Sequence record: SRR22947727_548
DNA: 40,914 nt
Strand: one strand, 5' to 3'
Shown piece after piece: positions 23,372 through 40,843 of the stretch. The translations under genes were made by a program, and so were the position numbers. Each line of letters begins with the position of its first letter. Positions within the stretch are counted from its first letter, which is position 1. The notes under the pieces were generated by a model. It was not told where the DNA came from and made no database searches. It saw only the letters and a program-made list of their open reading frames with translations.

Positions 23372-23734
23372 TCACACATTATCTACTGTAAAATTAATTT
23401 TTCTTTTCATAGCCTTAGTAAATCTACGCACAGTATCAGAAATATCTTGAGTTAAAGAATCATTAAGGGGCCATTCGTCCATGTAGTCTACTAACTTGGA
23501 AAGTTGCCTATATACATAAGTAAGTGTATCATCATCGTAATCTTTGTCTGCAATTACTTTTCCTAATGCAGATAATCTACCATTAAAACTATGTGTTTCA
23601 TTTTTACTTCCCCAACTGTACGGGGTAAGGTCATTAAATTTTTGAAATCCAGCATCTACTTTGCGGTATAATTCAATATATAAATCTGTTATGTCTTCAT
23701 CAGTATCAAATTTTAATATGTTGAACCAAGTCAT
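23372..23734 (-). CDS. WxxILK-tagged hypothetical protein
   Basis: 120 aa, MTWFNILKF. Confidence 0.75.
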   Translation of the reverse strand: MTWFNILKFDTDEDITDLYIELYRKVDAGFQKFNDLTPYSWGSKNETHSFNGRLSALGKVIADKDYDDDTLTYVYRQLSKLVDYMDEWPLNDSLTQDISDTVRRFTKAMKRKINFTVDNV

Positions 23735-23738
23735 AATA

Positions 23739-24287
23739 TCAAATCCAAACTATCCAAGAATCGTTCTTTTTAATATCCCAACGATTATTATATCTATCAG
23801 AAGTTTTGAAGAAATTTAAGACTTTATCCGGTATAACTTCATGCGTTTCAGGTTGTTCGCCAGACATAAATCCAGCATCTTTGCCCATCTGAGTATATCC
23901 TGCAATCTTAGGTATTCCTTTTAAATCAGCCAAATACCTGACTCTAATCTTTCCAGAAGCATCACCTTTAAAATGTTTTGTTCTGTTTCCTCGGATTCCA
24001 CCAATATAAGCAAATTTCTTTCCTCCTTTTCCTTGACGCAAAGCATAACCACCCACAGCACCAAGAACAGGCTTTCCTTCAACTTTCTTAATTAGACCAA
24101 ACCATGTATCTACGGGATAATTTGAAAGCCCCCTACTGCTACGGGCTTGCATTTGCAATTCAGGATTACTAGCATTCCATAATTCTAGCATTTCACTTTC
24201 GTTATTCAACTTAACTAAAATTTCTTTTTTATCTCCTAGAAGTTCCAAGAGTCTTGGGTGTGATTTAATTAAGTTCCACCAACTCAT
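23739..24287 (-). CDS. WxxILK-tagged hypothetical protein (possible GNAT-like fold)
   Basis: Likely start is ATG 24287, MSWWNLIKS. The fold guess from the beta pattern (VLGAVGGY, AYIGGIRG) is weak. Confidence 0.65.
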   Translation of the reverse strand: MSWWNLIKSHPRLLELLGDKKEILVKLNNESEMLELWNASNPELQMQARSSRGLSNYPVDTWFGLIKKVEGKPVLGAVGGYALRQGKGGKKFAYIGGIRGNRTKHFKGDASGKIRVRYLADLKGIPKIAGYTQMGKDAGFMSGEQPETHEVIPDKVLNFFKTSDRYNNRWDIKKNDSWIVWI

Positions 24288-24288
24288 A

Positions 24289-24777
24289 TCATCTACCCCT
24301 ATCATACGACCTTTCCAAGTCGTTAGCGTACTTAAGCATATCTCTTCCTTCTCTTATTCTATTTCTACTATTACGCATAAGTAGTTCGGAAGTAATTTTC
24401 ATCATCTTAATAGTCTTAGAAAATTGTTCTTCAAGGTTTTTATCTAAGTCACTAGAGTATTTTCTTTTGGTTTGTATTTTTCCTCTTTCAAAGTCATTTA
24501 TTACTCTTTGAACACTAGTGTTAGTTAGCCCCTGTTGTAAAGAACCCTGTGAGTACATTTCCCAACCGCCTTTAGAATAAAAATCGGCAAAGAAACTATA
24601 ATACTTTTCAAATTCTTTTTCTGGAACTTGTATTGGAATTGTAGATAGTTTTTCAGGTTTGGATTTCATTGGCCTACCTAAGTTTCTTGTAGTTGCTTTA
24701 CGGTGTAGCCAAAGATTAGGAGTTGTTGCTTTTTTACCAACTAAGGCTGTTGATTTTAATAGAATTTCCCAACTCAT
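24289..24777 (-). CDS. WxxILK-tagged hypothetical protein
   Basis: MSWEILLKS. Confidence 0.7.
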   Translation of the reverse strand: MSWEILLKSTALVGKKATTPNLWLHRKATTRNLGRPMKSKPEKLSTIPIQVPEKEFEKYYSFFADFYSKGGWEMYSQGSLQQGLTNTSVQRVINDFERGKIQTKRKYSSDLDKNLEEQFSKTIKMMKITSELLMRNSRNRIREGRDMLKYANDLERSYDRGR

Positions 24778-25151
24778 CATCTGTCCCTCTTAGAATCTAA
24801 TTCTTTTTTGGCTCTCTTTTGCTTTTCTCTAAGTTCATCCATAGCAGTTCGAGGCTTAGGTTTATCTTCTAATTTTTCAAAGTAATCCATAATCTCATCT
24901 ATTTGCTCTTCTGTTGGATTAGAAGACATAAACTTTTCACCCAATTCTTGAACCTCTTTAGAGTCTTTGCCATATTTAGAAACATTCATTCTTAACATGG
25001 CTTTGAATTGGGGTACTAATAAAGCCTTTGCCTTTTTAGCCTCCCTTTCCATGATTCTATCTACTTTTTTCTGTTTTTCAGGGCTGGCATTTCTATACCC
25101 TCTTCCCTTTTTATAATCAGAATCCTTCTTTAAAACATCTTGCCAACTCAT
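24777..25151 (-). CDS. WxxILK-tagged basic hypothetical protein
   Basis: 124 aa, MSWQDVLKK. Confidence 0.75.
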   Translation of the reverse strand: MSWQDVLKKDSDYKKGRGYRNASPEKQKKVDRIMEREAKKAKALLVPQFKAMLRMNVSKYGKDSKEVQELGEKFMSSNPTEEQIDEIMDYFEKLEDKPKPRTAMDELREKQKRAKKELDSKRDR

Positions 25152-25160
25152 AACAATTCC

Positions 25161-25478
25161 TCACAAAAATTTATAATATCTCACATTTTTATATCCTATA
25201 AATTTGCCATCAGGGGCAAATCTCCGTTTTGCTGTTTTAATTTCTAATAGATTTCTATTCTTGAGCATACTTGTGATTCTATTTTTTATCCTATCTGATG
25301 GAACACCCTTATGTCGTTTAGCATACTTGTTTCTTACATCTTCTATGAATGTATCAAATTCGTTTGAATTTAGGACTTGCCCTTTTAATAGTTGGGCTTC
25401 TTGAATAGCAACCTCTTTTAGAAAGTCGTGGTCAAGCCTCCTAGCACCCCCCCGCTTAATTACTTTTTCCCAACTCAT
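25161..25478 (-). CDS. WxxILK-tagged protein, possible winged helix
   Basis: 105 aa, MSWEKVIKR; helices followed by a beta hairpin. Confidence 0.7.
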   Translation of the reverse strand: MSWEKVIKRGGARRLDHDFLKEVAIQEAQLLKGQVLNSNEFDTFIEDVRNKYAKRHKGVPSDRIKNRITSMLKNRNLLEIKTAKRRFAPDGKFIGYKNVRYYKFL

Positions 25479-25876
25479 TTCTCTCCCCTCATTTGGTTTT
25501 CTTTAGAAGTCTTATCATCATCAATTGGACCGCCCTTAGCCCAAGTATAGCAAGTTCTTGCTGAATGACATTTGAAATCGTGCATCCAACAGTAGCCTAA
25601 TCGACCATCTTCATCTGTATTTAGTGGCATACATTCGTCCATTCTTGGAGATATATCAAATGCAATACAATTACTGCAATTAGATTCCTTAGCAACCTCA
25701 GCAGTAGTTTTCCACTTCTTAGCGTATTCTTCCCAATACTTTTCGTCGCTTAGATTGAGAGGCCCGTATTGAATATGCTTTTCTTTAACCGCCCTATCCC
25801 TATTCTTAGTATTAAGTTTCAAATCTTGAGTCGCTCTAGGGCAAGACAGTTCTTTTAGAATAATCTTCCAACTCAT
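25475..25876 (-). CDS. WxxILK-tagged Cys-rich metal-binding protein
   Basis: 133 aa, MSWKIILKE; CSNC...GYCWMHDFKCHSARTC. Confidence 0.8.
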   Translation of the reverse strand: MSWKIILKELSCPRATQDLKLNTKNRDRAVKEKHIQYGPLNLSDEKYWEEYAKKWKTTAEVAKESNCSNCIAFDISPRMDECMPLNTDEDGRLGYCWMHDFKCHSARTCYTWAKGGPIDDDKTSKENQMRGEK

Positions 25877-26181
25877 TTCTTTCGACCTCTTTGTGGCTTA
25901 GGAGGTAGTCTTCCCCTCTTTTGTTTCTTTTTTCTTTTAGTGGGCTTATCAGTTTCTGCGGCATTAGGATTATTTCTCCTTCCAGCGACAAATTCACTCA
26001 TAGCGTGTTCTTCTTCTCTTCCACCACGAAGGCTATTTTTTCTTTCCCAATCCCTTTGTCTGCGTTCTTCTTCATCACGCTTTTTTTGCCTTCTTAGGTA
26101 AGCATTATGCCTTTCAATTTTTGCTCTCTTAGCCGCCATTTTTTTAGGATTATATTCCTTTAGTACATCTTTCCAACTCAT
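25873..26181 (-). CDS. WxxILK-tagged highly basic protein
   Basis: 102 aa, MSWKDVLKE; R/K-rich. Confidence 0.7.
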   Translation of the reverse strand: MSWKDVLKEYNPKKMAAKRAKIERHNAYLRRQKKRDEEERRQRDWERKNSLRGGREEEHAMSEFVAGRRNNPNAAETDKPTKRKKKQKRGRLPPKPQRGRKK

Positions 26182-26492
26182 GCTGTAAATGGCCCCCTTC
26201 TTTTACTGCCTTTTTTTGGTTCATGTGTGTATAAATCTCCATGTTTATGATGATTAATAGTCCCTCTTCTAACTAAAGCGTTGAGAACCCTTATGAGATT
26301 TTTACGGTCAGTAATGCTCTTAAGATTCTTCATACCCAAAGCACCACCTTCTTTAACAATTTCTGCAAGTATTTCTTTTTCTATTTGTCTATCGGTCTTC
26401 ACTGCTTTTTTTGTTCTTTCAGAACATTCAGCACAACCGCAAGACATTTTTTCTCCGCTACAATGCCCTTTTAATATATCTTTCCAATTCAT
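26178..26492 (-). CDS. WxxILK-tagged protein with Cys cluster and winged-HTH-like region
   Basis: Likely start is ATG 26492, MNWKDILKG; HC...CGCAEC and LIRVLNALVRRGTI. Confidence 0.7.
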   Translation of the reverse strand: MNWKDILKGHCSGEKMSCGCAECSERTKKAVKTDRQIEKEILAEIVKEGGALGMKNLKSITDRKNLIRVLNALVRRGTINHHKHGDLYTHEPKKGSKRRGPFTA

Positions 26493-26776
26493 TAACAATT
26501 CCACCTTCTTCTTGCTGCTTTGGCTTTTTCACTATAAGTGCCATCATCACGCTTAAATCCTCTTGACCTTGAGCAGAAATTCTTGCGCCTTTTAGCGGCT
26601 TTACTACCACGCTTCAATTTACTTGGTTTAGTGGTGACAGGAGCCTTTAGATTAGCACCTGTTTCACGCTTAAATTTAGCACGACCCTTAGCACTTAATC
26701 CTCCGGTCTTTGCGTGAATTTTTTTATTATATCCCTTAAAAGGTTTTTTCTTTAGAACTTCTTGCCATTCGTTCAT
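26492..26776 (-). CDS. WxxILK-tagged basic protein (GGLSAKGR...RRKNFCSR...RRRWNC type)
   Basis: 94 aa, MNEWQEVLKK. The domain resembles small basic proteins I recall from marine phages. Confidence 0.8.
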   Translation of the reverse strand: MNEWQEVLKKKPFKGYNKKIHAKTGGLSAKGRAKFKRETGANLKAPVTTKPSKLKRGSKAAKRRKNFCSRSRGFKRDDGTYSEKAKAARRRWNC

Positions 26777-27186
26777 GATTTTCCCTTCCTTCTTGGATAA
26801 CTTTTACATTTGGCACAGGTCGCCCTGCATCTTTGCTTTGTTCCTTTTGAAGCACTTTCACGGCCACAGGGCTTTACTCCCTTTTTATCATCTTCACAAG
26901 ATTGACAAGAAACCCAACCAGAAACCGTTTCACCATTTTCACCTTCGGCTTCTTGTTCAAACCATGTTTTCAAGGGATTAGCCTTCTTTACAGAATTGCC
27001 CCAATTAGCCGCACCAACATTTCGGCAACGAACTAAAGCCCCACTTCCATAAGCAGAAGGCCATTTCTTATATCGGCTTCTTACTTTGTAATAACAAGCA
27101 TCCTGTTTCTTTCCAGACCTTTGAGTTTTTCTTCTGCGAAGTTTCTTCTTCTTCGCTTTAACAATATCAAACCATAGTTCAGTCAT
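26773..27186 (-). CDS. WxxILK-tagged basic Cys-rich protein (DACY..V..RY..WPSAY.SGALV.CR type)
   Basis: Likely start is ATG 27186, MTELWFDIVKA, after an AGGTGA RBS. Confidence 0.75.
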   Translation of the reverse strand: MTELWFDIVKAKKKKLRRRKTQRSGKKQDACYYKVRSRYKKWPSAYGSGALVRCRNVGAANWGNSVKKANPLKTWFEQEAEGENGETVSGWVSCQSCEDDKKGVKPCGRESASKGTKQRCRATCAKCKSYPRRKGKS

Positions 27187-27190
27187 AGTA

Positions 27191-29797
27191 TCACCTAAAG
27201 TTTGCTTTGATAACATAAACTTGTTCGGAAGTTATGCCATGTTCTTCTGCTATTCCTTGAAAAGAATCTACTTTATTAATTATGGAAATAATTTCCCCTG
27301 CTCCCATATCCAAACCAAAACTCTCTTCCATCTTAGAAATCATGTCATTCACATCTTCAAAACTATTTTCATTTTTTAGAGCATAGTGTACCGGTTTTGA
27401 TTTAAGGATTCTTAAAGAATCATGTGCCTTAAGGAGTTTCTTTTGTATCTCACTCTTGGTCACTCTATCTAAGTTATTCATTAATTCATCTAAGTTATTA
27501 GTAAATGATTTGTCTTCGTTATTAGAAATTGCATCTTTATTTTGCAAAATTAAATTACCTAAAACTTCAAGAGTAGTCATGTCTTTAATCTCTTCAATAA
27601 ATAATTCTTTGTAAGCCTCTTGAATATCTATGCCCATAAACTTCACAGATTGTTCCTTTGCTGCTTCGGAATACTGATAGACTGAACCCAAAATAGATGC
27701 AATTTCCATTTTAATTTTTGAGTTAAGAGCAGGTTCATCATAAATATCACTAATCGCCTTATAAAATAACTTAGCAGCATCTTCAATTTTATTATAATTA
27801 GTTAAAGAATCTTCCTTTCCTAAATATTGTAAAAATGAATTGAGTTTAGTTATTTGGGATTCTTCTATGAATGCTTCTGGATTTTCCATAAATGCTTTTG
27901 TGGCTACATAAAGAGGGTCTTTTTTACTACTTTCCTTATTAGTTTTTAATCTAAATGTAATTGCCTTAACTGCCGCATCCTTTTCAAAAGGCAAGTCTAT
28001 GCCATATAAAAATTCACTAACAGTCTGCTTCGAGAAACACCTATACATTAGTTCATTTATCTCAGCCATTTTATTATTGATAGGCTTAAGTAAAGTACCT
28101 TTCTTATTTTTGAATTTTCTAGCACTTCCGGTCATTCCTGATAAATACCGAGATATATTGAATAATGATGCTGGTTGCGGCTCATTTTGTTTTGTCGGGG
28201 GGCTTCCTGCTCCTGTTAACCATCCTGTTGCTAAGTTTTTAGGGGTTTGAGATTTAACATCACCTTCAATCAAGTTCTTGTATAATAAAAGAAATTCATC
28301 GACACTTTCTTCGACCTTAATTATTCTATCGAATCCTTTATCGCCCCTGTAATATTCTTTTATTTCTTTTTCTTTAAGAATAAATATTGGGAAGTGTGCG
28401 GCGGTTGATTCGCTAGTCTTAGTTATTTTTTCTATATCTTCTAGAAAATCAGCAAATTTAGCCTTAATGTCATCATCTACAAATACTTCTACATCTTCTC
28501 CTTCTTCGACAAGTTCAGTAAATTCATCAAAGTCAGATTGTAGCATATCCTTTAGTTTTTCTATTGTTTCTTCTATCTCACTAGTATCTTCAACTTTACC
28601 TTCAAAGGTAGCGGAACTACCCTTAAGATTTCTTTCAAAATTAAGAATACCTAAAATGTCTAAATCGTATTTTTTAGGTTGTAATTTCTCTTCAATTTCT
28701 TTTGTTTCTTCAACGGCTTCGGCAACTTGTGGGTCTATTTCACCTATTCTAACCGGCTCTCCACCTTCTCCTATTGTTTCTACTCCGGCGGGTGCAATAT
28801 AACCCATGTCTATTAATCTTTCAATTAAGTTATTTTGAACTAAGAATAGTTCTAGTAATTCCACAGACCTTTCAGAAATAGGAGATATTTTTACTTGTTC
28901 ATTATCAAATTTTTGGATATAGTTAATATTTTTAATCTTTTCAGGACTGTTGCAGAAATCCATAAATTTTTCAATGTCACCCTTTCCGCCCCTAAATCCT
29001 GCATCTTTATCAACATTCTCTAAGAGTTTCAATAGGTTTTCTCCTTCTCCACTTATAAGTTCAATAATAGAATTAATATCATCACTAACACTTTCCCAAT
29101 GACCGTAGGCTTTTTCTCTAGTGGAGTAGTCTTGTAATCTTTTAGTATTAAATACTCTCAAAAGATTAAAATCTGAAACAACTAACTCTAAACTCTCCTT
29201 AGCACTTGTGCCTTTATATAACTCACTGATTTTTCTTTCAATTGCCTTTAGCCGCTTGTAAAGTTTAGGTGTGTCTTCTTTAGTGACATTGGGTTTAGTT
29301 ATTAGTTCTTTCACAAAAGCAGCCTTACTTATTGTTCTTATAGACTTCGCCCCTTTTGTCATTAGAGGCTCAATTGTTATATTATTCACATTAAAATTAG
29401 AACCTAAATTTAAAATCCTTAATGGGGAGCCATTATATTTTAATTGAGCAAATTGTAATAGTGGAGTTCTCAATTCTTCTATTTTTTCTTCTTCCGAAGA
29501 CCTTTCTCTAGTTTCCTTAACTTGACCTGCAATACTCAATAGATACTTAAAAGCGTTAATTTCAAAATCATCAATAAAATCATCTATTTCATCATCACTT
29601 AATGCTTTGCTTTCACCAATTGCTTCTCCTATATCAGCAAGAGTACCACTAATGTTATCTTTAATTTCTTTTTCAGAAGCAAGGCCTTTTTTAAGAATAG
29701 CAACTCTTTCTGGAAGATTTGCACTTTTTAGGCGAGTAATATAATCTGGAACATTTTTAGAGAGCCAATCTGTTCCATCTTGTTTTAGAATAATCAT
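27191..29797 (-). CDS. Large acidic/charged hypothetical protein (candidate internal virion protein)
   Basis: 868 aa, begins MIILKQ; ATGA overlap, GGAGG RBS. Confidence 0.8.
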   Translation of the reverse strand: MIILKQDGTDWLSKNVPDYITRLKSANLPERVAILKKGLASEKEIKDNISGTLADIGEAIGESKALSDDEIDDFIDDFEINAFKYLLSIAGQVKETRERSSEEEKIEELRTPLLQFAQLKYNGSPLRILNLGSNFNVNNITIEPLMTKGAKSIRTISKAAFVKELITKPNVTKEDTPKLYKRLKAIERKISELYKGTSAKESLELVVSDFNLLRVFNTKRLQDYSTREKAYGHWESVSDDINSIIELISGEGENLLKLLENVDKDAGFRGGKGDIEKFMDFCNSPEKIKNINYIQKFDNEQVKISPISERSVELLELFLVQNNLIERLIDMGYIAPAGVETIGEGGEPVRIGEIDPQVAEAVEETKEIEEKLQPKKYDLDILGILNFERNLKGSSATFEGKVEDTSEIEETIEKLKDMLQSDFDEFTELVEEGEDVEVFVDDDIKAKFADFLEDIEKITKTSESTAAHFPIFILKEKEIKEYYRGDKGFDRIIKVEESVDEFLLLYKNLIEGDVKSQTPKNLATGWLTGAGSPPTKQNEPQPASLFNISRYLSGMTGSARKFKNKKGTLLKPINNKMAEINELMYRCFSKQTVSEFLYGIDLPFEKDAAVKAITFRLKTNKESSKKDPLYVATKAFMENPEAFIEESQITKLNSFLQYLGKEDSLTNYNKIEDAAKLFYKAISDIYDEPALNSKIKMEIASILGSVYQYSEAAKEQSVKFMGIDIQEAYKELFIEEIKDMTTLEVLGNLILQNKDAISNNEDKSFTNNLDELMNNLDRVTKSEIQKKLLKAHDSLRILKSKPVHYALKNENSFEDVNDMISKMEESFGLDMGAGEIISIINKVDSFQGIAEEHGITSEQVYVIKANFR

Positions 29798-32034
29798 TCA
29801 CTAACCTCCCTCAAAATATTTTCACGAATTAATTTTTCCATAAATGTAGAATAATATAGATTGTAATATTTATAGGGATTGTTTGCAATGTCATCCATTT
29901 TTTCTTCTAGTGCTTTAACAAAAGCATTAGCAAAATCCTTTGAACCTTCGTTAATTAAAGAAGCCAAGTCCACAATCGCTTGTGCTAACCTCTCGTCACC
30001 AATACTTAACCCTTCCTTCCTAAGTGTATCTATTTGTTGAACCTTTCCAACAATATCTGTCTTTTGACCGTATCTTCTTGCTAGGTGGTGAGTAAGAACA
30101 ATTGCTTTCTTTAGTGTAGTTGGTGAAGACTTGTTGCTTTCTAAGGTGCTTTTATTATCAGTAAGAAGTACATCTATTGATTCCTTTGGATTCAAAGAAT
30201 CTATTTCTCCAGCAAGTCCTTTTTCTAAGGAAGTAGTGAATTTATTACCCAAGTCCTTTTCTTTTAATTTTTCTTCTGTTCTTCTAGTGACAGTAAGTGT
30301 AGTTTCTGTAAGTTTGGTATCGGGGGCAAATCGTCGAAGTCTTCGCATAAACCGAGAGTCGTTTAAAGCAAAATCCCACTTTTTTCTTGTTTCATCATCA
30401 TTGATATAAACACCTACCTTAATAGTTCCTATCTTTTCATATTGATTAGCCCTTAGTGAATTTGTAGGCCACCCGCTATTATTGAATTTTTCTTTATCAA
30501 AACTAGCCTCTCGCAGATATTTATTCATAGCATTAAAAACAGCCAACTGAATACCTTCAAGGTTTTTTTTCCCACCATATCTTTCCTTTGCTTGTTCATA
30601 CTCATCATCCTTTACTCCAGATTTGATTGATTTAACCTTTTCTCTTCTTGCATTTCTATTTGCGAGGCTTTCACCGGGAATTTTTCTTCTAACCCAAGAC
30701 AACAAAAACTGATTTTCGTCCACTTTTACCTTAAAACTCATCGAATTTATGGCACTATCTACCGGTCTATTGTTCAATTTACTGTTAATAATGGCCTCAA
30801 ACAAGGGTATTGACTTATACTTTTGACCATCTTTTTTATAAAAAAAGGGAAGAAAATTGCTTTCTTTTTGACCTTTTACGCTAAAAAGCAGTAATTTTAT
30901 GGCTTCTTGTTGGATTTTAGTGCGTTTTCTGCTTTTTCCACGCCTTCCTAACTTATCGTAGCGTATGTTATCAAGTGTGGAGTGTTTGCTTCTAAAATCA
31001 CCAACATTTCCCCCATATTCAGGACTTAGAGGAACCTTTTCAGATTCAATGGTTATTTTATCTCCGCCTTCCCTAATTATCTTAAAATAAATAGATACTT
31101 TATTCTCTAAATTACCAGATTTTTCTAATTTAACCTTAGTTTTACGCTTAATTGAGTATTTTTTAATATTTTTGATGACTTTATCAGTTTCAACAAGTAA
31201 TTCATATAATAATGGATAATTATATTCTATTGATGCTTTTCTAATAATTTCTTCACCTTCTTTTAATAGGCTATCTAAGTCTAAATTTGCCAATTCTTCC
31301 TTCTCATCTTCAATTTTTATTATTTTTTGGAGAATAGTCACATTTCCTTCAGTTTTTTCTTGCCAACCACTAGAATTTTTAAGAGATTGAGCATTAATTG
31401 GTCTAGATTTGAGATTATCTATCAAAATTCTCATTAAACAATAGTTAAAATTATTAGTTCTTCGATTTAAATAGTCTTCAAGGCTAGGTTCCTGCTCTTC
31501 TGCAAAGAAAGACTCAACTTTTTCTAAAAACTTGACCCTTTTTTCTCTACTATCCAAACCTAATTCCTTTTTTAGCGAAGAGATGAAAGACTTACTGCTT
31601 ATTTCTTCCGCACTCTCTTCTTTTTTTGATAATAAATCCATAAAACCTTCAAATACTTCATCTTCTAGTTCTGTATTCTCTAAAATTACTTCAACTGTCG
31701 CCTGTAAATCTTCAGGTTGTCTAGTTTCTTTTATTTTTTCATCTAGAACTTTCTTATATTTTAATAAATTTTCCCAAATGCTGTCCATTAAAGTGTAAAT
31801 ACTATCAGTGTCTAAACGCTTAGTGATAGTCTTAAAATCCTTAGAATACTTTTCTTCGAGTAATTCCTGCATAGCGTCAGCATTTCCGGTAGCCTCAAGT
31901 TCTTTAACAAAATTCTTAATTAATGTAGCCGAATTTGTTTTACCCTTTATATCATCCGAAAGTAAAGTGTTCATACCCTTTTCATCTTTTAAAAAAGTAA
32001 GAAGCAAAACAGGAGAAGCAGGGTAATACACCAA
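29794..32034 (-). CDS. Large charged hypothetical protein
   Basis: 746-aa ORF with a TTG start after GGAG. Confidence 0.8.
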   Translation of the reverse strand: MVYYPASPVLLLTFLKDEKGMNTLLSDDIKGKTNSATLIKNFVKELEATGNADAMQELLEEKYSKDFKTITKRLDTDSIYTLMDSIWENLLKYKKVLDEKIKETRQPEDLQATVEVILENTELEDEVFEGFMDLLSKKEESAEEISSKSFISSLKKELGLDSREKRVKFLEKVESFFAEEQEPSLEDYLNRRTNNFNYCLMRILIDNLKSRPINAQSLKNSSGWQEKTEGNVTILQKIIKIEDEKEELANLDLDSLLKEGEEIIRKASIEYNYPLLYELLVETDKVIKNIKKYSIKRKTKVKLEKSGNLENKVSIYFKIIREGGDKITIESEKVPLSPEYGGNVGDFRSKHSTLDNIRYDKLGRRGKSRKRTKIQQEAIKLLLFSVKGQKESNFLPFFYKKDGQKYKSIPLFEAIINSKLNNRPVDSAINSMSFKVKVDENQFLLSWVRRKIPGESLANRNARREKVKSIKSGVKDDEYEQAKERYGGKKNLEGIQLAVFNAMNKYLREASFDKEKFNNSGWPTNSLRANQYEKIGTIKVGVYINDDETRKKWDFALNDSRFMRRLRRFAPDTKLTETTLTVTRRTEEKLKEKDLGNKFTTSLEKGLAGEIDSLNPKESIDVLLTDNKSTLESNKSSPTTLKKAIVLTHHLARRYGQKTDIVGKVQQIDTLRKEGLSIGDERLAQAIVDLASLINEGSKDFANAFVKALEEKMDDIANNPYKYYNLYYSTFMEKLIRENILREVSE

Positions 32035-32038
32035 AAAA

Positions 32039-32221: not shown

Positions 32222-32232
32222 TGTAATTTCTC

Positions 32233-32481: not shown

Positions 32482-32498
32482 TGTAATCTCTCCTGCAT

Positions 32499-33586: not shown

Positions 33587-33590
33587 TTTA

Positions 33591-34652
33591 TCATCCTCTA
33601 ATTATTTCAAGCCAAGATTTTTTGACGGGTTCGGGAACAGTTGTCATTCCTGAAATATTAAGATAGTCACCATTTTTTAATTGGAATTGTTTTTCACCTG
33701 CAACCTTAGCCAATAGAACTTTTATTTGCCTAGTCGATAATTGTTGGAATGAAAAGGTTTTAACCTCACTCGGTAAATCTCCAAGTTTGGCTGAATCTGT
33801 GACAGCATCAGATTTATTTCCAGAATCAAATCTTTGTCTTTCAATCTGTTGTTTTATTGCAGAATACTTAGGAACACCGTTAATAAATAATTCATCGTTG
33901 TCAAATATCTTTTTAACAAAACTAGACAGCGATGGTATAGAAACAAGATTTCCAATTCTGTATGGATTAAAAGACATATGAGTAATTTTCATATTTTCTA
34001 ATTGTTTTACTGCTTCCTCTAAAACATCTAAAAGCCCAACGGTAATTAAATCTCCGCCACCAAATAATGCTTGGGCTAATGGAGGATTTGCAGTATCTTT
34101 TTCAGAACTATACCAACTACTAGGAGCCTTCGGCTTTTCGTACTTAGCAGCATAATAGTCGTCTGCATAATGACCATATACATAACTTTCTTCATCGTCT
34201 TCTATTTTAAAAGACTCGCCTTTTCCAGAAAATCTTTTAAGTCTAGTAAAAAGAATATTTCTAGGATTATATGAACTATTTGCACCTGCATATCGAACCT
34301 TAATTCTTCTCACATAAGACTTAATCTCATCTAAATCTTTATCAGTATAAATATCCTTTTGAGTCATAGAATCATTAATTAATTTTAATAATCTAAAAAC
34401 ACCTTTATTCTTCCCTTTATTTCTAGAGTTTGGCCTAACCCAATTTTCAGTCACATGTTCATCTAATTGTGCGTAAAGGTTTGCTGGTTTGGGATTACCT
34501 TTTTTACCCGTACTCATAATCTTTTCTTTACTGTGACCTTTACAATCACTCATCCAATCAGCATACTTCTGCTTAAAATCATACTGTCCGTCGATTTCAT
34601 ATTCGACTCCACCACTTGTCTTAAACACTGCTTTCTTCGTCTTCTTCGGCAT
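33591..34652 (-). CDS. Hypothetical protein with C-terminal KSWLEIIRG motif
   Basis: Likely start is ATG 34652 after GGAGGTGA. Confidence 0.75.
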   Translation of the reverse strand: MPKKTKKAVFKTSGGVEYEIDGQYDFKQKYADWMSDCKGHSKEKIMSTGKKGNPKPANLYAQLDEHVTENWVRPNSRNKGKNKGVFRLLKLINDSMTQKDIYTDKDLDEIKSYVRRIKVRYAGANSSYNPRNILFTRLKRFSGKGESFKIEDDEESYVYGHYADDYYAAKYEKPKAPSSWYSSEKDTANPPLAQALFGGGDLITVGLLDVLEEAVKQLENMKITHMSFNPYRIGNLVSIPSLSSFVKKIFDNDELFINGVPKYSAIKQQIERQRFDSGNKSDAVTDSAKLGDLPSEVKTFSFQQLSTRQIKVLLAKVAGEKQFQLKNGDYLNISGMTTVPEPVKKSWLEIIRG

Positions 34653-34788
34653 CTTTGTCACCTCCGTATTTTATGTTGAATTTAGATGGGTCGTTGCCGT
34701 GACCCCCAAACGCTACACCCCCGCTCTCCTTATTCAAGTTGCCGCAAGCATCACAACATGAGCCTTTAATTATATTCCACCATTTCAT
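34621..34788 (-). CDS. WxxILK-tagged small Cys protein (55 aa, below ORF-track cutoff)
   Basis: Manual translation MKWWNIIKGSCCDACGNLNKESGGVAFGGHGNDPSKFNIKYGGDKDAEEDEESSV; GGAGG RBS. Confidence 0.7.
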   Translation of the reverse strand: MKWWNIIKGSCCDACGNLNKESGGVAFGGHGNDPSKFNIKYGGDKDAEEDEESSV

Positions 34789-35387
34789 ATCATTTCCTCC
34801 AATCGAAATTATCTTCTATTTCTTTTGTTTCAGGGGTAGAATGTAAAATTACCATTATTCCCCAAATTGGTTTGTCGGGTGTTCCATGTGGCAACATTCT
34901 TCCCATATTCTCGTTAATAGTATAAGAAAAATAATGCCTATAACTTCCTCTAGGTAAATCTTTACCATCTAAATGCTGAGTTGTTTCCTGTTTCATAACA
35001 TACCTATTTAATGCATATTTTTCATCTAATTGTATTACTTCCAAAAGTTCACTTCTTGGAAAATTAACTGTGGGAGCGTTTAAAATTTCATCTTTACTAG
35101 GCCAATCTCTACTAATTAAGGCCATCGCTTTACAAGCCATTCTTTCAGGGAAAAGTCCCCATTCCATATTTTGAAAGAACCTTTCATCTACAATAACTGC
35201 TCTTGGATGAAGGCCAAGATTTTTAGCATTTTTAACATATTGCGTTAATTTTTCTTTACATTCCTCTTCTTCTGGTTTTTTAATTTTAATTCTATTGGAA
35301 CTAAGAGTAGTCCCTTTCCCCTTTGCCTTTCCAGATAGCCTAGTATTTTTAAGAATATTCCACCAATTCATATCATTTCCTCCAATC
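34772..35387. repeat. 33-nt direct repeat at gene junctions (ATATTCCACCA[T/A]TTCATATCATTTCCTCCAATC)
   Basis: Copies at 34772-34804 and 35355-35387, 1 mismatch. Confidence 0.9.
34790..35371 (-). CDS. Paralogue family member 4 (conserved N-terminus, variable C-terminus)
   Basis: MNWWNILKNTRLSGKAKGKGTTLSSNRIKIKKP. Confidence 0.8.
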   Translation of the reverse strand: MNWWNILKNTRLSGKAKGKGTTLSSNRIKIKKPEEEECKEKLTQYVKNAKNLGLHPRAVIVDERFFQNMEWGLFPERMACKAMALISRDWPSKDEILNAPTVNFPRSELLEVIQLDEKYALNRYVMKQETTQHLDGKDLPRGSYRHYFSYTINENMGRMLPHGTPDKPIWGIMVILHSTPETKEIEDNFDWRK

Positions 35388-35954
35388 ATTATTAGTCGAC
35401 ATTCTATTAGGATTTAGTTTCATTGTAGCCCATTGGTTAAAAAAAAGAGAATCAGAGGTCATTGAATTGACAATTACACAATTAAAACTAATATCAATAC
35501 TTCTAATTACATTCATCCCTGCATTAAGATTAATTTCAACATCGTAGCCATCTATTTTTTCCTTTTTAATAGATGTTTCTTGCCACTTGTTATCACCTTC
35601 ACTCACCTTTTTCAATTCATCTTGGCTCATGTCTAAATATTTTTTCAAGCCGCCTTCCAAATCATAACTATCTATAAACCGAAGAATCTTACAAATAGTA
35701 GATTCCCCTGCATCCTCTATGAACTTATATATTCGTTTTTTAAATTCCGTAGGTTCCAACGCAAATATGGGTGCTGTTCTCGAATCGAGTCCTTTATTAT
35801 CAAAAAAATTAGTATGAGTCCCTTCTAATATATCTTTCATTCTTTTTATGCAATCATCTGGTTTTTTGATTTTAATCCTATTAGAACTTAAAGTAGTACC
35901 TTTGCTCTTTGCCCCCCCAGACAATTTAGCGTTCTTAAGAATATCCCACCACAT
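35373..35954 (-). CDS. Paralogue family member 3
   Basis: MWWDILKNAKLSGGAKSKGTTLSSNRIKIKKP. Confidence 0.8.
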   Translation of the reverse strand: MWWDILKNAKLSGGAKSKGTTLSSNRIKIKKPDDCIKRMKDILEGTHTNFFDNKGLDSRTAPIFALEPTEFKKRIYKFIEDAGESTICKILRFIDSYDLEGGLKKYLDMSQDELKKVSEGDNKWQETSIKKEKIDGYDVEINLNAGMNVIRSIDISFNCVIVNSMTSDSLFFNQWATMKLNPNRMSTNNDWRK

Positions 35955-36607
35955 TACTTCCACCAACTATATCCAAATTTCCCTGCTTCATAATATCCAG
36001 ATAAATTATAGACATTATTATGATTCACGCCTTTTAATTCTCTTTGGTATTCATCTGTTCCAGAATCAGTATTTTCTCCATTTCCCCAATGTAGAATAAC
36101 TTTGGGTTTTTCATTCTCATGAATCTCAATTGCAGTACTATTTCGTTCATAAGTATTTTGGTTTGTAATGACAATTTGATACTCAATACCTTTAATTGTA
36201 ATAGTGGAGATATTGGAACTACTGTATAATTCGTCGGTTGTTGTAGATTTTTCAAGCATATCAATTGCCTTACAAGCGACCTCTTCAGGAACCGGCTCGT
36301 AAAAGAAATAAACAAATTCATGCAAATGGTGTTTAGAATAAATATCTTCACCTTTTTGGTTTAGGTAAAACTTATTAGCAAACTCTAATTTTTCGTCTAT
36401 TGCAATTTCAAAATGTTTTTGAAGAAGTTTATTTCCTTCAAAGCGTTTTTTCATTACCAAATCATAATTCTTTAATTTATTTGCCCACTCTTGTAATTTC
36501 ATATTACAATCCTCTTTGGGTCTTTTGATTTTAATCCTATTAGCACTTAAAGTAGTACCTTTTGCCTTTCCAGACATCTTGGCATTCTTTAAAATTTCCC
36601 ACCACAT
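35954..36607 (-). CDS. Paralogue family member 2
   Basis: MWWEILKNAKMSGKAKGTTLSANRIKIKRP. Confidence 0.8.
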   Translation of the reverse strand: MWWEILKNAKMSGKAKGTTLSANRIKIKRPKEDCNMKLQEWANKLKNYDLVMKKRFEGNKLLQKHFEIAIDEKLEFANKFYLNQKGEDIYSKHHLHEFVYFFYEPVPEEVACKAIDMLEKSTTTDELYSSSNISTITIKGIEYQIVITNQNTYERNSTAIEIHENEKPKVILHWGNGENTDSGTDEYQRELKGVNHNNVYNLSGYYEAGKFGYSWWK

Positions 36608-36612
36608 AAAAA

Positions 36613-37299
36613 TCACCCAAGAATAGTATCAATTTTATTACAAGCATCTAATAGTCGAATAGCATCATATATTTCTTTAAGGTGTTCATCTTGATTATCA
36701 TAATTTGAATAATATCCATTACCCATTTCAACACCTAATTTCAGTATTGCTGGATGGTATGCTCCGGCAGACAAAAACACTCTAGGCGCATGATACTTTA
36801 ATCTTGAATTACCTTTTTGGCGTTGAGCGATTATGTAAGGGTCATGGTTATAATCCGCATTCATATTCAAATCATCTGATTCTGGCGAATTGTACAGTTC
36901 TATTAATTTACAAGCCGTTTCTTCAGGTATAGGCTTATATTCATAATATACCAAAATACGCAAAGGGCTTCGATTAATTTTTGTTCCAATTCTGTATTCT
37001 ACCATTCCTTCATAAAATTCCCCCACCTCCTTTCTAAATTTTAGAGGGGCGGTTCCAGAAATATTATCCTCTCTAGTTTCTTTATTTGTTGGGGGGTTAT
37101 CCTTGTTAATTTTTTCTATTGTGCTTTTTAACACAGATTCAATTTTCGTACCATAAGCCTTTAAGAACTTTTGAACTTCCTTTAATTTCTTATTGCAATC
37201 TTCTGGCCTTTTAATTTTTATTCTATTAGCACTTAAAGTAGTGCCTTGTCCTCTCGACTTCCCGCTAACCCTAGCATTTTTAAGAATTTTCCACCACAA
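36613..37299 (-). CDS. Paralogue family member 1
   Basis: TTG start after GGTGA: (M)WWKILKNARVSGKSRGQGTTLSANRIKIKRP. Confidence 0.8.
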   Translation of the reverse strand: MWWKILKNARVSGKSRGQGTTLSANRIKIKRPEDCNKKLKEVQKFLKAYGTKIESVLKSTIEKINKDNPPTNKETREDNISGTAPLKFRKEVGEFYEGMVEYRIGTKINRSPLRILVYYEYKPIPEETACKLIELYNSPESDDLNMNADYNHDPYIIAQRQKGNSRLKYHAPRVFLSAGAYHPAILKLGVEMGNGYYSNYDNQDEHLKEIYDAIRLLDACNKIDTILG

Positions 37300-37304
37300 G
37301 TAAA

Positions 37305-38030
37305 TCACCGCTTAACATTATCAAACCAAGATTTCATTGTTTCTTCCTTGTCATAGAAAGATTGTGGGAAGTCTTTATCAGGATTCACTTCGACTTCTAA
37401 ATCGGATTCTGTTTCAATAGACCTTTCCGTTGCTTCTAAAAGCATTTTCTTAATTACTGCACTTATTACAACAACTGTATATCCCAAGAACTCTTGGGAT
37501 AGAGCAACATCCCACAAATTGGCCTTAAGGTCTTCTAAAATTTCATATCCCACATCGTCAGATTCTATAACCTTTTTAAGTTCTTCTTCAATCTCTTCTT
37601 TCATAGAATTAACTATTTCTTTTGCTAATTTTTGACCAAGTTCATCAAGTGTTTCAAAAACATCTTCTGGAACATCGTCTTCTGTAATAGTAATATCATC
37701 TTCTTCCTCCATTAGCGAAGTAACAGTGGATTGTGCTAAATTACGAATTTTATCATCATACTTAGGGTCATTCATCATATCTATACCTATCAACAAAGGT
37801 TCGGATAAAATAATTTCTGCCGATTTTCTTCTTTGGGCAACTGATAAATCTACATCATCTAATGCTCTAATTGTTTTAGCCAACAAAGCACCACCGTATT
37901 TACTTAAATCGGGAGTTAGTTGAATACGGTCAAAAATTCCAGCATATATGCCTCTTGAGTTTTGAATCACATCTCTAAAAGAAAAATCTGCTTTTAAGAT
38001 GTTTTCCTCGTTGTAATAATCCCAAGTCAC
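37305..38030 (-). CDS. Acidic helical protein with WDYY...ILKA N-tag and C-terminal KSWFDNVKR
   Basis: GTG start at 38030 after GGTGA. Confidence 0.75.
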   Translation of the reverse strand: MTWDYYNEENILKADFSFRDVIQNSRGIYAGIFDRIQLTPDLSKYGGALLAKTIRALDDVDLSVAQRRKSAEIILSEPLLIGIDMMNDPKYDDKIRNLAQSTVTSLMEEEDDITITEDDVPEDVFETLDELGQKLAKEIVNSMKEEIEEELKKVIESDDVGYEILEDLKANLWDVALSQEFLGYTVVVISAVIKKMLLEATERSIETESDLEVEVNPDKDFPQSFYDKEETMKSWFDNVKR

Positions 38031-38345
38031 ATCATTCACCTGTTTCAAAATCCGCTTCTCTTCGTTTTATTCCAATAAGAACTGCTTCCGCAATATCTTG
38101 TAAACCAATTTTTAAGGTTTTTTGACTAAACCATGTTGGAGTATCATATTTAACATAAATAGCATGAACGGCCCTTTCAAATTCGTCATATAATTTATCT
38201 GCGTCGGTTTTGTATTCTCCCTCTAAAGTTAAAAGTGGTCTTTTCTCACCAAAAACTTTTACTGCGTTATCTGGCTCCGGCGCATCACTAGGTCTTCGTT
38301 CTCGTACTTTTCTTATTTCATCTTTCCAAGTCATATCATTCACCT
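38022..38345. repeat. 20-nt direct repeat at gene junctions (CCAAGTCA[C/T]ATCATTCACCT)
   Basis: Copies at 38022-38041 and 38326-38345, 1 mismatch. Confidence 0.8.
38032..38334 (-). CDS. WxxILK-tagged hypothetical protein
   Basis: Likely start is ATG 38334, MTWKDEIRK. Confidence 0.7.
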   Translation of the reverse strand: MTWKDEIRKVRERRPSDAPEPDNAVKVFGEKRPLLTLEGEYKTDADKLYDEFERAVHAIYVKYDTPTWFSQKTLKIGLQDIAEAVLIGIKRREADFETGE

Positions 38346-38773
38346 TTTAAATATCTTTTAATTTCACCAAATGCAGTTTTAATATACTTTGGAGCATCTT
38401 TCAATCTTTCTTCTATGGCGGATAAATTCGCTGCTAATGCAGCCTCTTCATTATCCTTCTCAAATGTATTGAACTCGCTCTTCTTAAATTCATCAATAGC
38501 CTTCTTAGTCATAGGCATTACATCTTTTAGATTAAAAACAGGAGTTACATTAACTACTTGATTATTTACCCTAACAGTGTATGTTCCACCTTTTCCAGAT
38601 TGAACCTTAATATTGCCTCTATCATGTGATAGAGTGCCATAATAATAAGTAGATACACCTCTACCCTTTCCAACTTTTTTATAGCCGCCTTTAATTTCGC
38701 CACCGACTTCTTCCTTTAATTCTTCGAGAAACTTTTTACCATCATACATTTTTAATAGTTCTGTCCAATCCAT
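38336..38773 (-). CDS. WxxILK-tagged hypothetical protein
   Basis: Likely start is ATG 38773, MDWTELLKM, after AGGAG. Confidence 0.7.
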   Translation of the reverse strand: MDWTELLKMYDGKKFLEELKEEVGGEIKGGYKKVGKGRGVSTYYYGTLSHDRGNIKVQSGKGGTYTVRVNNQVVNVTPVFNLKDVMPMTKKAIDEFKKSEFNTFEKDNEEAALAANLSAIEERLKDAPKYIKTAFGEIKRYLKGE

Positions 38774-38774
38774 A

Positions 38775-39209
38775 TTATCTACTCCTTGTTGTTTCATAAA
38801 ATTGCCTAATTGCACTTTCATTACCTATAACTTCGACAAAGAAACTTAATCCATTTAAGTTCTCAACAGACCATCTTCCAATTTTATCTGTGCCAAATTT
38901 GATAATTCCAGAAGCATTTAAAATACTATCCTCGCCCATTCTCCAATCTGTAATCTTAAAATTAAGCCTACCTAATTGCATAGTATCTCCTTTCTTATGA
39001 GTGCTTTCTTTGCCAATTGAATTAAATTTACTTCTTAGAACATTTAAAGCGTAGTTTTTAACACTTTTCTTAGTTCCTGCAATAGACGATTTTAGTGCAT
39101 CTCCTTCTCTAAGCATGGCAAAATCTTCACCATCAATTTCACCGTTATTATTACGGTCTAATTTCTTCTGCTTAGGGGTAAGTTCTTTTAGTATGTTTTG
39201 CCAAGTCAT
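38775..39209 (-). CDS. WxxILK-tagged protein with an EF-hand-like loop
   Basis: MTWQNILKE; DRNNNGEIDGED is a canonical Dx[DN]x[DN]GxI loop. Confidence 0.75.
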   Translation of the reverse strand: MTWQNILKELTPKQKKLDRNNNGEIDGEDFAMLREGDALKSSIAGTKKSVKNYALNVLRSKFNSIGKESTHKKGDTMQLGRLNFKITDWRMGEDSILNASGIIKFGTDKIGRWSVENLNGLSFFVEVIGNESAIRQFYETTRSR

Positions 39210-40123
39210 TTTTTATTCCTCCTATTTTGTCTAAATCGGTTTAAATCTATATTCCCTCTGGGTTTCACATCTTTATTTTTTCCGGCTTGTTTTCTTGGTA
39301 TTCCACGCAGACCAAACTCTCTTTGTCGTTCTTCAACATCATCAAGGCGACTTTGTGTTTCGGCTCTTTTTTCGTCCGAGATTTCTCTTTCTCTCTTTTC
39401 TCGCTTTTCTTTTAACGCATAAATTGGCTTTTTTATGTTTTGCCAAATCCAATTGCGATTAAGAAAAGCCCGTTGTGTTAAATATATGTCGTGTTTATTT
39501 TTAATAAAACTAGGATTTTTTTGTATATATTCCTTAACAAAACCAACAAGTTTGTCAACTTCTTCGACCCTATCTTGAAAACCTTTTAATGTATCTAATT
39601 TAAATTCTTTGTGTTCTTTATTCCATAGTTCAACATTTTTAGCACTTCTTTTCTTATCTGGAAATCTAGCACTTTTTTGGGGATTCTTCTTTCTCATCGA
39701 CTCCGCTATTTTTGAGCCGACTGTGATAAGATATGCTCTTGCTTCATCGGGAACTGTTATTCTATTTAATTTATTACCGTAATGTGACTTAATCCACCTA
39801 GAATCTTTGACAGTGATAGCATATCCTTTTTCTCTTAAAATGTTCAAAAGTCCAGATTGGTTGTCAATTGCCCTATCTGTGATAAACTTAAATGAATCTT
39901 GAATAAACTTCTTTGAGCCTTTTGGTGCAAATCGAATAGTACCGTCTGCCATTCTTTCGGCAGGGTCAGGACTTTGTGGTGGTTCAATACTAAGAACCTT
40001 AGCAGGATTATCTTTATCCCAATCTTTAACTGTCTTTTCCAAATAATCAGGATTCCACTCAAAGTACTTATCAATTTCCGGCATAGAAATGTCCGGTCTT
40101 TTTATAATGCTCCACCATGTCAT
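39206..40123 (-). CDS. WxxILK-tagged basic hypothetical protein
   Basis: Likely start is ATG 40123, MTWWSIIKR, after GGTGA. Confidence 0.75.
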   Translation of the reverse strand: MTWWSIIKRPDISMPEIDKYFEWNPDYLEKTVKDWDKDNPAKVLSIEPPQSPDPAERMADGTIRFAPKGSKKFIQDSFKFITDRAIDNQSGLLNILREKGYAITVKDSRWIKSHYGNKLNRITVPDEARAYLITVGSKIAESMRKKNPQKSARFPDKKRSAKNVELWNKEHKEFKLDTLKGFQDRVEEVDKLVGFVKEYIQKNPSFIKNKHDIYLTQRAFLNRNWIWQNIKKPIYALKEKREKREREISDEKRAETQSRLDDVEERQREFGLRGIPRKQAGKNKDVKPRGNIDLNRFRQNRRNKK

Positions 40124-40133
40124 AATAATCACC

Positions 40134-40409
40134 CTACAATTTTCCACGCTTTTCGTGAGAAATAGTATTTTTAACCTTTCCCTTTAAATAAGTAGTGGAC
40201 GGTTGCACCTCGATATATCCTTGCTCAAACTTCTCAAATTCTTGAAGTATTTTATTATAGGCTTCCTCATCGTAGGGCTTTCCTCGTTGTTTATCCATCA
40301 TCGCTTCGATTTTATCTCTAAACTTTATATTTTCTCTATTTGCGTGGTGGTCTTCTGGCTCGTCACCAAATGGATTTGCGTACCTTTTCAGTATATCTTT
40401 CCATTCCAT
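40134..40409 (-). CDS. WxxILK-tagged hypothetical protein
   Basis: 91 aa, MEWKDILKR. Confidence 0.75.
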   Translation of the reverse strand: MEWKDILKRYANPFGDEPEDHHANRENIKFRDKIEAMMDKQRGKPYDEEAYNKILQEFEKFEQGYIEVQPSTTYLKGKVKNTISHEKRGKL

Positions 40410-40843
40410 AATAATCTCTTTCCTGTTTATTGCTTAGTAACGGATATTGTATTGTTTCCGCCCTTTTCCGCAGTAAAGCCTAATTTTCCTAGATAACTAA
40501 TTATTTCCGTTATGTTTTCCTCAATAGCCTCAGGAGTTAAACTGCCTCCAGAAAATATAGGATTCAAGTCATACATTAAACCTCTCTTTTGACCCATTCC
40601 TGAAACACCATTACTAAGTATCTTAATACCGAATTTCCCTACTTTTTGAAATTCTGGGTCATCTCTAAATACCTTAAGTACCTCATTGACAAGTTGCTGT
40701 ATTCGCTGTACTCTTTTTTGTTTTTGACCGGCGCTGTACGCATCGTTCCTTTGACCTCGCTTCCTTTCCCTAATTCTATCAAATGGCCCTTTCTGTATAA
40801 TATCTTCCCATGTCATAATAATCCTTTTCCTGTTTATTGCTTA
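40407..40843. repeat. 30-nt direct repeat of leader/start region (CATAATAATC[TC/CT]TTTCCTGTTTATTGCTTA)
   Basis: Copies at 40407-40436 and 40814-40843, 2 mismatches. Confidence 0.9.
40427..40816 (-). CDS. WxxILK-tagged hypothetical protein
   Basis: 129 aa, MTWEDIIQKG. Confidence 0.75.
   Translation of the reverse strand: MTWEDIIQKGPFDRIRERKRGQRNDAYSAGQKQKRVQRIQQLVNEVLKVFRDDPEFQKVGKFGIKILSNGVSGMGQKRGLMYDLNPIFSGGSLTPEAIEENITEIISYLGKLGFTAEKGGNNTISVTKQ

Follow-up and report, generated by a model that had tools for sequence, protein, structure and literature searches.

Why should some two dozen genes of a single locus, most of them encoding proteins with unrelated bodies, open with the same short peptide? 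The question is raised by SRR22947727_548, a 40,914-nucleotide stretch of DNA (hereafter, the window) for which an earlier note, made from the letters alone, had proposed a capsid-targeting and cargo-loading tag ending in Lys. The motif M-x-W-x-x-[IV]-[LI]-K stands at the start of 22 of the 56 called open reading frames (ORFs) of the window, where 0.03 would be expected from composition (binomial P = 1.6 × 10−55). In its strict form (W-x-x-[ILVMF]-[ILVMF]-[KR], with the Trp at residues 2–5) it occurs away from the N-termini of window proteins five times, compared to 1.8 expected. A six-frame regular-expression search returned 25 rows on the minus strand, which correspond to 23 separate ORF starts (one of them, 24780/24777, listed twice) and an internal or alternative start at 31788 (MDSIWENLLK); on the plus strand its single row was a 27-residue ORF. 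Every peptide listed in the earlier note was recovered at an ORF start. Variant tags occur on four further ORFs, two of them with MTWEDIIQK (40816) and MTWKDEIRK (38334) and two with insertion forms absent from that list, namely TWDYYNEENILK at 38027, in an ORF with a GTG start, and MTWDYYEEGKDIILK at 15161. From the evidence set out below, we conclude with high confidence that the tag is a portable terminal docking peptide.

All real genes of the window lie on the minus strand. Family searches recognized a large terminase subunit (TerL; 21936-23366), a portal protein (18748-20391), an S78 prohead protease fused to an acidic helical scaffold region (411 aa, 10517-11752; hereafter, protease-scaffold), an SU10-type major capsid protein (MCP; SU10_MCP / PHROG major head protein, 9167-10504), and an ATP-dependent DNA ligase domain (11799-14321) that sits inside the structural module. 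The head genes match HK97/SU10-type families rather than T4-type families, and by sequence neither the protease-scaffold nor the MCP has a match in the PDB. Gene content identifies the window as a magrovirus, a tailed virus of marine group II archaea, because a ligase within the structural module, genomes of ~95 kb, and a separate replication module fit the description of magroviruses in the main text of PMC5434244. The absence of an N-terminal tag from TerL, the portal, the GTPase-like protein, and tail-region proteins, which the earlier note had remarked on, was borne out, and the protease and the MCP are likewise untagged.

Conservation of the tag is seen at the level of the peptide. In the codons for its hydrophobic residues the second base is T in 24–25 of 25 tags (1.6–1.9 bits), whereas the first and third bases carry only 0.24–0.61 bits. 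The tag Lys is encoded by AAA and AAG alike, synonymous and class-preserving changes are common among tags, and DNA repeats that span tags are 78–86% identical over 22–27 nt. With the second codon base fixed, the first and third nearly free, and the repeats no more similar than this, selection therefore acts on the tag peptide and not on the DNA; the W and ILK residues are constrained, contrary to the possibility, raised with the original proposal, that the motif is conserved only as DNA. Longer shared gene junctions (47–62 nt, including the ribosome-binding site) are limited to small subsets of genes, and an account of the tag as a DNA repeat or recombination junction fits only these local subsets. 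We also rejected a start-associated repeat acting at the nucleic acid level, which is ruled out by the conservation of second positions, the freedom of synonymous change, and the existence of C-terminal copies of the motif.

The same peptide is spread over a large and variable set of proteins in related viruses. IMG/VR contained 211 terminase relatives, of which the best 80 (81–100% identical, on contigs of up to ~96 kb) were used, and 11 near-complete relatives (TerL 69–91% identical) were taken for whole-genome comparisons. Across the 80 terminase loci, all 589 tagged ORFs shared the strand of the terminase. A stricter collection from these loci comprised 641 tagged ORFs with 578 unique sequences, which fall into 207 BLAST body families, 135 of them singletons; the set of tagged genes is polymorphic among close relatives and the peptide is retained. 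Among the 578 unique proteins, the first position after the Trp is K, E, or Q and the second D, E, or N, followed by I (78%) or V (18%), L (77%) or I (17%), and finally K (98%) or R (2%), with no conserved position after the tag Lys. The M-x-W spacing is found in 178 of 207 family representatives, and each genome has 12–24 tags, corresponding to ~1 gene in 7.

Tagged proteins are small (median 108 aa; 5 of the 207 representatives reach 300 aa or more), and they include both acidic (75) and basic (92) members. One of the 207 representatives has a transmembrane-like window, whereas among untagged small ORFs the figures are 77 of 410 on one strand and 68 of 574 on the other, control values that are inflated by crude gene calls. 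A signal peptide or membrane anchor was rejected on the same observation, and because the tag has 8 residues of which three are hydrophobic. In the window, the 23 strict-tagged proteins form 19 BLAST families, so that the claim that the bodies share nothing apart from four paralogues is roughly right. The body types that had been named (Zn-binding, wHTH-like, EF-hand, and others) fared less well: Pfam searches with 26 tagged or neighbouring proteins gave one match above the cut-off, DUF6321 (26492-26776), and there was one weak winged-helix match.

One tagged protein (104 aa, 26178-26492, MNWKDILK) illustrates the layout. In 23 orthologues, M1, W3, and K8 are among only ten invariant columns and an indel-rich stretch comes next; in an AlphaFold2 (AF2) model, residues 9–30 have pLDDT values below 50 and the body 70–78. 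The orthologues and the model thus agree on a flexible linker between the terminal tag and the folded body, which looks winged-helix-like, as the best Foldseek matches are all winged-helix domains, none reaching an E-value of 0.001.

Tagged genes are confined almost entirely to one part of the genome. Each of the 11 near-complete relatives has two divergent arms, and tagged ORFs account for 154 of 745 ORFs on the structural-gene strand but 2 of 698 on the other strand (Fisher P = 4 × 10−45). The enrichment of the motif in morphogenesis over replication genes, on which the earlier proposal depended, is therefore present, and the motif is not equally frequent elsewhere. The other strand of one relative (G002) encodes a split family-B polymerase (PolB), a clamp-loader ATPase, a UvrD-like helicase, a ribonucleotide reductase (RNR), and a Cpn60/TCP-1 chaperonin. 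Of the 154 tags, 76 lie upstream of TerL, 27 between TerL and the portal, 17 between the portal and the MCP, and 10 beyond the MCP, with 24 unplaced because the contig is broken there; these position classes are unreliable for G006 and G010, whose contigs are broken. The interval from TerL to the tail genes holds at least 44 of the 154. G001, a 76-kb relative with a TerL identical to that of the window, lacks the protease.

The tag is not bound to the start codon. Full copies of the motif occur at C-termini (KKSWLEIIRG in the window, and KKSWQDILRW, KSWVDIVRV, and EDWFDILRT), the window copy (33594-33617) closing a 353-aa protein with an untagged N-terminus (33591-34652). Among 12 orthologues of this protein, five have an N-terminal tag and a degenerate C-terminal remnant, two have, like the window protein, a good C-terminal copy and an untagged N-terminus, and five are without a strict tag at either end. 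Because the tag swaps ends among orthologues, a signal linked to the start codon is ruled out, and a terminal docking peptide is compatible with the pattern. The basic residue that closes the motif also differs between the two ends: it is Lys in 98% of N-terminal tags, whereas in the window, loci L001-L080, and G002, G009, G010, and G013 most full C-terminal copies finish with Arg and one more residue (IIRG, ILRW, IVRV, ILRT).

The insertion forms hint at exchange among the tags themselves. A conserved head-module gene (122 aa, 14793-15161) carries MTWDYYEEGKDIILK in the window and the insertion form in three of ten orthologues, the other seven having a regular or near-regular tag. The second case, a 244-aa ORF with a GTG start (37305-38039), has TWDYYNEENILK at 37992-38027, and its G001 orthologue begins with a regular MTWEDILK. 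The same insertion form, TWDYY..E..ILK, is thus seen on two unrelated window genes (15117-15161 and 37992-38027) whose orthologues carry regular tags, which suggests gene conversion between tags within a genome.

What might such a peptide dock to? A profile built from one tagged protein per body family was used to rank all 13,137 8-mers of the window outside N-termini, and the top two were both MEWSDIHK, once in the protease-scaffold, 5 residues before its end, and once in a 79-residue protein (14557-14796; hereafter, mini-scaffold), 8 residues before its end. The two proteins share a C-terminal helix, M-[DE]-W-S-D-I-H-K-M (MEWSDIHKM in the window), the protease-scaffold ending in MEWSDIHKMVNNI (10520-10558) and the mini-scaffold in MEWSDIHKMVEKVGGQ (14560-14607). 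The protease-scaffold tail is kept in 120 of 120 close homologues, and at least 15 of 150 listed distant representatives, read by eye, end in [ML]-[SD]-W-x-[DE]-[IV]-[HN]. In the mini-scaffold, which is predicted to run from a long N-terminal helix through a disordered linker into a C-terminal helix that starts at the Trp (W66), the M, W, and I of M-x-W-x-x-I are among nine invariant columns in 14 orthologues down to 22% identity.

According to PMC12749128, the N-arm helix of the capsid protein is contacted by scaffold C-termini in both 80alpha and P22, and the scaffold of 80alpha competes for it with SaPI1 CpmB. By this analogy, the tail common to the protease-scaffold and the mini-scaffold is very likely a shell-binding handle. 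We infer that the MCP is the binding partner of the scaffold tail and possibly also of the tag.

We propose that the tag, M-x-W-x-[DEN]-[IV]-[LI]-K, would fold as a short amphipathic helix whose Trp, Ile, and Leu share a face, with a flexible linker leading to the body, and that the virus would place it on many small soluble proteins, a rapidly changing collection made alongside the head genes. The inside of the assembling procapsid would be its binding partner, the tag imitating the first part of the C-terminal helix with which the protease-scaffold and the mini-scaffold would hold the shell. Tagged proteins would then co-assemble into the procapsid and, when the virus next infects a cell, leave together with its DNA as a first-strike arsenal for DNA binding, takeover, or anti-defence, and the S78 prohead protease may clip the tag after its Lys. 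The partner, the encapsidation, the clipping, and the injection are each what we infer, and to this reading, that the tag loads cargo into the procapsid interior for co-packaging and delivery with the DNA, we assign a probability of about 0.45. It is also possible, more tentatively, that in this one lineage of the most abundant archaeal viruses of the surface ocean the system amounts to encapsulin-like loading on a true viral capsid, in which a scaffold-helix mimic packs any small soluble protein and the pan-genome holds hundreds of interchangeable injected effectors. The capsid-targeting idea of the earlier note thus stands insofar as a peptide signal sits on unrelated proteins, almost exclusively in the morphogenesis arm, with the core of a scaffold helix; its likeness to that helix is partial, and the two do not co-vary.

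Several observations weigh against loading into the head. The placement of tagged proteins in particles is predicted from sequence, and two dozen cargo species per particle would be many for a 95-kb virus. The 76 tagged genes upstream of TerL lie beside the divergent intergenic region and could be early genes. The likeness between tag and tail also depends on how it is scored. When the Met column is dropped, because the Met of the tags is the start codon, and only W-anchored 6-mers are compared, the tails rank 7–8 of 116 in the window, and tails without Lys in sister subgroups (WSDINA, WDEIND) rank ~30–60 of ~300. With the full profile, the tails of the sister subgroups rank 1–41 of ~24,000–26,000 8-mers, one of 16 tails (the G009 mini-scaffold) not appearing in the output. 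Those subgroups have tails such as MDWNDINALV, MDWNEVHLAM, MDWADIHNLV, and MSWDELHQVI and their tags stay MSWxDILK; in eight divergent genomes, we found no co-variation of tag and tail at the fourth or fifth position after the Trp. Moreover, Ser or Thr occupies position 2 in 127 of 189 family representatives, and methionine aminopeptidase (MetAP) as a rule removes the initiator Met when Ser or Thr follows it, so that one of the positions shared by tag and tail would be erased.

A sister clade with TerL 38–39% identical (L348-L364, G017-G019; tails MSW[DE]E[IV]H) keeps both scaffold tails, with 70 MSW[DEA][ED][VI]H tails in 74 loci, and three of its genomes, of ~100 kb each, contain 0, 0, and 2 strict tags. 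The tail therefore needs no tags, and the tags could bind something else. The same distribution indicates that the tail came first and that the tag arose later, in the clade of the window; the tag could imitate the first turn of the tail or be a peptide of separate origin. In one of these genomes (G018), two neighbouring ORFs start with MQEAWQILK and MQEAWLLLK.

If the partner were not the capsid interior, the tag might dock to another common partner, such as the viral chaperonin, a host hub protein, a proteasome or degradation adaptor, or an assembly site in the cell, and would gather or time accessory proteins without packaging them. All evidence for a portable peptide fits this alternative equally well, and the missing co-variation, the tagless sister clade, the Cpn60/TCP-1 chaperonin that these viruses encode, and the position of half of the tags at the promoter-proximal end of the arm speak for it. 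We nevertheless consider it unlikely, because it leaves unexplained why the replication arm is nearly untagged (2 of 698), why tagged genes lie between TerL, the portal, and the MCP, and why two scaffold tails are the best non-N-terminal matches to the tag.

A more improbable alternative is that the tag is chiefly a propeptide, which the S78 prohead protease would cut off behind the Lys to activate or release proteins at head maturation, with docking secondary or absent. The conserved block does stop abruptly at its near-invariant Lys, an S78 protease is encoded in the same arm, and T4 uses a protease to remove its capsid targeting sequence. The MCP itself contains GNALLKQAG (10409-10435) near its N-terminus, within a GN[AS][LV]LK[QA]AG pattern whose [LV]-L-K core is conserved in 120 close homologues and which is a candidate maturation cleavage site. 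Full C-terminal copies, however, end one residue past the basic residue, so that cutting them would free a single residue and cleavage cannot be the motif's only role. Two further strings that resemble cleavage sites, F-x-I-L-K where the protease begins and F-D-I-L-K where it meets the scaffold, were dismissed, as they are conserved across distant S78 homologues as elements of the fold. We give least credence to the idea that the motif is a by-product of gene birth, in which duplication or recombination at junctions passes on a ribosome-binding site and first codons, or of the needs of translation initiation. This would account for the 47–62 nt shared by some junctions, for three successive junctions (32185-32947) that share gcaggagagattaca and then ATGAGTTGG (54-nt repeat family D7), for a 98-nt leader common to four tandem paralogues (34790-37299), and for the TWDYY insertion on two unrelated genes. 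Across all tags, however, third and first codon positions are free and the amino-acid class is fixed, DNA identity is at the level of ~78–86% over 22–27 nt given above, the tag is invariant in orthologues while the next residues are indel-rich, and C-terminal copies and end swaps are inexplicable by a start-codon signal.

The closest known parallel to capsid loading by the tag is the capsid targeting sequence (CTS) of T-even phages. Where PMC3012670 treats the T-even internal proteins, it describes highly diverse defence proteins that share only this sequence, which suffices to encapsidate foreign proteins, the cargo including anti-restriction proteins; as to the existence of this sequence, the background given in the earlier note agrees with it. 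As with IPI-III and Alt of T4, a short N-terminal peptide is found here on diverse, fast-evolving small proteins of a tailed virus, and the set is hypervariable here too, with 207 families among viruses of at least 81% TerL identity. The chemistry of the two motifs is unlike (taking the T4 sequence as quoted in the earlier note), and T4 targets the scaffolding core and uses a protease of another family, whereas the magrovirus tag resembles the scaffold's C-terminal, putatively shell-binding helix, can stand at either terminus, and marks 12–24 genes per genome instead of a handful. The host is also archaeal, and packaging and cleavage are here predictions.

Encapsulins load unrelated cargo through short terminal peptides on flexible linkers, which are bound by the interior of an HK97-fold shell. 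The tag, too, is a terminal peptide joined to unrelated proteins by a flexible linker, and its binding to a shell is putative. As cellular compartments, encapsulins take in one cargo type or a few, through a peptide that mostly sits at the C-terminus and is extended, not helical; the magrovirus shell would instead be a true viral capsid, which has to accommodate DNA as well, and there would be hundreds of cargo families. In 80alpha gp46 and SaPI1 CpmB, two different proteins end in the same helix, as do the protease-scaffold and the mini-scaffold, but that case involves two or three assembly proteins and no cargo and has no counterpart to a similar peptide on the N-termini of about two dozen non-assembly proteins. 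In HK97, a C-terminal signal reportedly sends the S78-type maturation protease into the procapsid (Duda, Oh and Hendrix 2013); this is one protein's own signal and not a family-wide tag, and the HK97 scaffold is fused to the MCP rather than to the protease as in magroviruses. Full-text searches of the literature on archaeal-virus N-terminal motifs, magroviruses, and targeting peptides of archaeal tailed viruses gave no mention of the tag in main texts. The text of PMC5434244 contains neither "N-terminal" nor "motif", and that of PMC11706807 lacks "N-terminal" and has "motif" twice, both times about a helix-turn-helix protein.

Magroviruses are among the most abundant marine archaeal viruses, yet they are uncultured and most of their genes have no assigned function. 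An 8-residue tag that sorts ~1 gene in 7 into one functional class gives these genes a testable address. If head loading is true, archaeal viruses would gain their first described cargo-addressing system, and arsenals of injected effectors like those of T4 would have evolved independently on an HK97/S78 chassis. Hundreds of candidate takeover or anti-defence proteins could then be mined from metagenomes by a simple sequence rule, and the tag itself would offer a ready means of loading foreign proteins into the particles of archaeal viruses. Should the partner lie outside the capsid, the sharing of one docking peptide by more than 200 unrelated families would still be an unusual case of modular protein addressing in a virus.

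The tagged ORFs of the window start at the upper of the paired coordinates given for each. The series opens with a 129-aa ORF carrying the variant MTWEDIIQK, with Q before the K (40427-40816), and continues with ORFs of 91 aa (MEWKDILK, 40134-40409), 305 aa (MTWWSIIK, 39206-40123), 144 aa (MTWQNILK, 38775-39209; with a weak EF-hand hint under the Pfam cut-off), and 145 aa (MDWTELLK, 38336-38773), and with a 100-aa ORF whose tag, MTWKDEIRK, is degenerate (38032-38334). The 244-aa ORF with the insertion form follows and has SWFDNVKR at its C-terminus (37308-37331). Next come the four tandem paralogues, of 228 aa ((M)WWKILK with a TTG start, 36613-37299), 217 aa (MWWEILK, 35954-36607), 193 aa (MWWDILK, 35373-35954), and 193 aa (MNWWNILK, 34790-35371). 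Behind the tag they have a basic 35-residue leader resembling NAKLSGKAKGKGTTLSSNRIKIKKP and then unrelated bodies; the leader gives the impression of a further module, longer than the tag and added to it.

A Cys-rich 55-aa ORF (MKWWNIIK, 34621-34788) separates the paralogues from the 353-aa ORF with the C-terminal copy. The N-terminus is also untagged in a 219-aa ORF with a Cys motif and a weak helix-turn-helix match (32927-33586), which has a conserved IWLDIKKK 7 residues before its C-terminal end (32948-32971). Three tagged ORFs of 143 aa (MSWKKIVK, 32499-32930), 82 aa (MSWEDIVK, 32233-32481), and 60 aa (MSWEDFLK, 32039-32221) lie at the junctions with shared repeats; the upstream ORFs there end in MQERLQ because gcaggagagattaca and ATGAGTTGG are shared, and this ending is also found on unrelated ORFs of G001. 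Two large ORFs without a family match come next. One, of up to 746 aa (29794-32034), has the tag-like MDSIWENLLK at residue 83 (31759-31788), which may be its true start, and the other, of 868 aa (27191-29797), starts with MIILK, without a Trp. In the 868-aa protein, the C-terminal VY.IKANFR is kept in 12 of 12 relatives and the first ~700 residues diverge almost beyond recognition.

A compact run of tagged ORFs leads from there to TerL. It comprises a basic, Cys-rich ORF of 137 aa (MTELWFDIVK, 26773-27186), the 94-aa ORF with the DUF6321 body (MNEWQEVLK, 26492-26776), the 104-aa ORF with the winged-helix-like body, a very basic ORF of 102 aa (MSWKDVLK, 25873-26181), a Cys-rich ORF of 133 aa with orthologues in 33 loci (MSWKIILK, 25475-25876), and ORFs of 105 aa (MSWEKVIK, 25161-25478), 124 aa (MSWQDVLK, 24777-25151), 162 aa (MSWEILLK, 24289-24777), 182 aa (MSWWNLIK, 23739-24287), and 120 aa (MTWFNILK, 23372-23734), the last being immediately upstream of TerL. 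Apart from the insertion form in the head module, the only tagged ORF on the far side of TerL is one of 68 aa (MWQNILK, 6296-6502) among the tail-region genes. It adjoins a 222-aa tail-region protein (6507-7175) with weak matches to small GTPases (Roc, MMR_HSR1), all under the Pfam cut-offs.

A 457-aa ORF between TerL and the portal (20555-21928) has a weak match to an HNH-endonuclease PHROG in its C-terminal part, and in G002 a block of tagged genes follows the counterpart of this ORF. BLAST of a 1116-aa protein against the relatives returned no row; the copy in G002 has a tag-like start, MSWKAVLS. Many replication-arm ORFs of G001 and G002 (L085-L093) end in ...EEE or ...EE (GLSEEE, NKEEEE, FTNEEE). 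These endings probably represent the ribosome-binding site of the next gene read in frame, and they are nonetheless a second shared terminal feature of these genomes.

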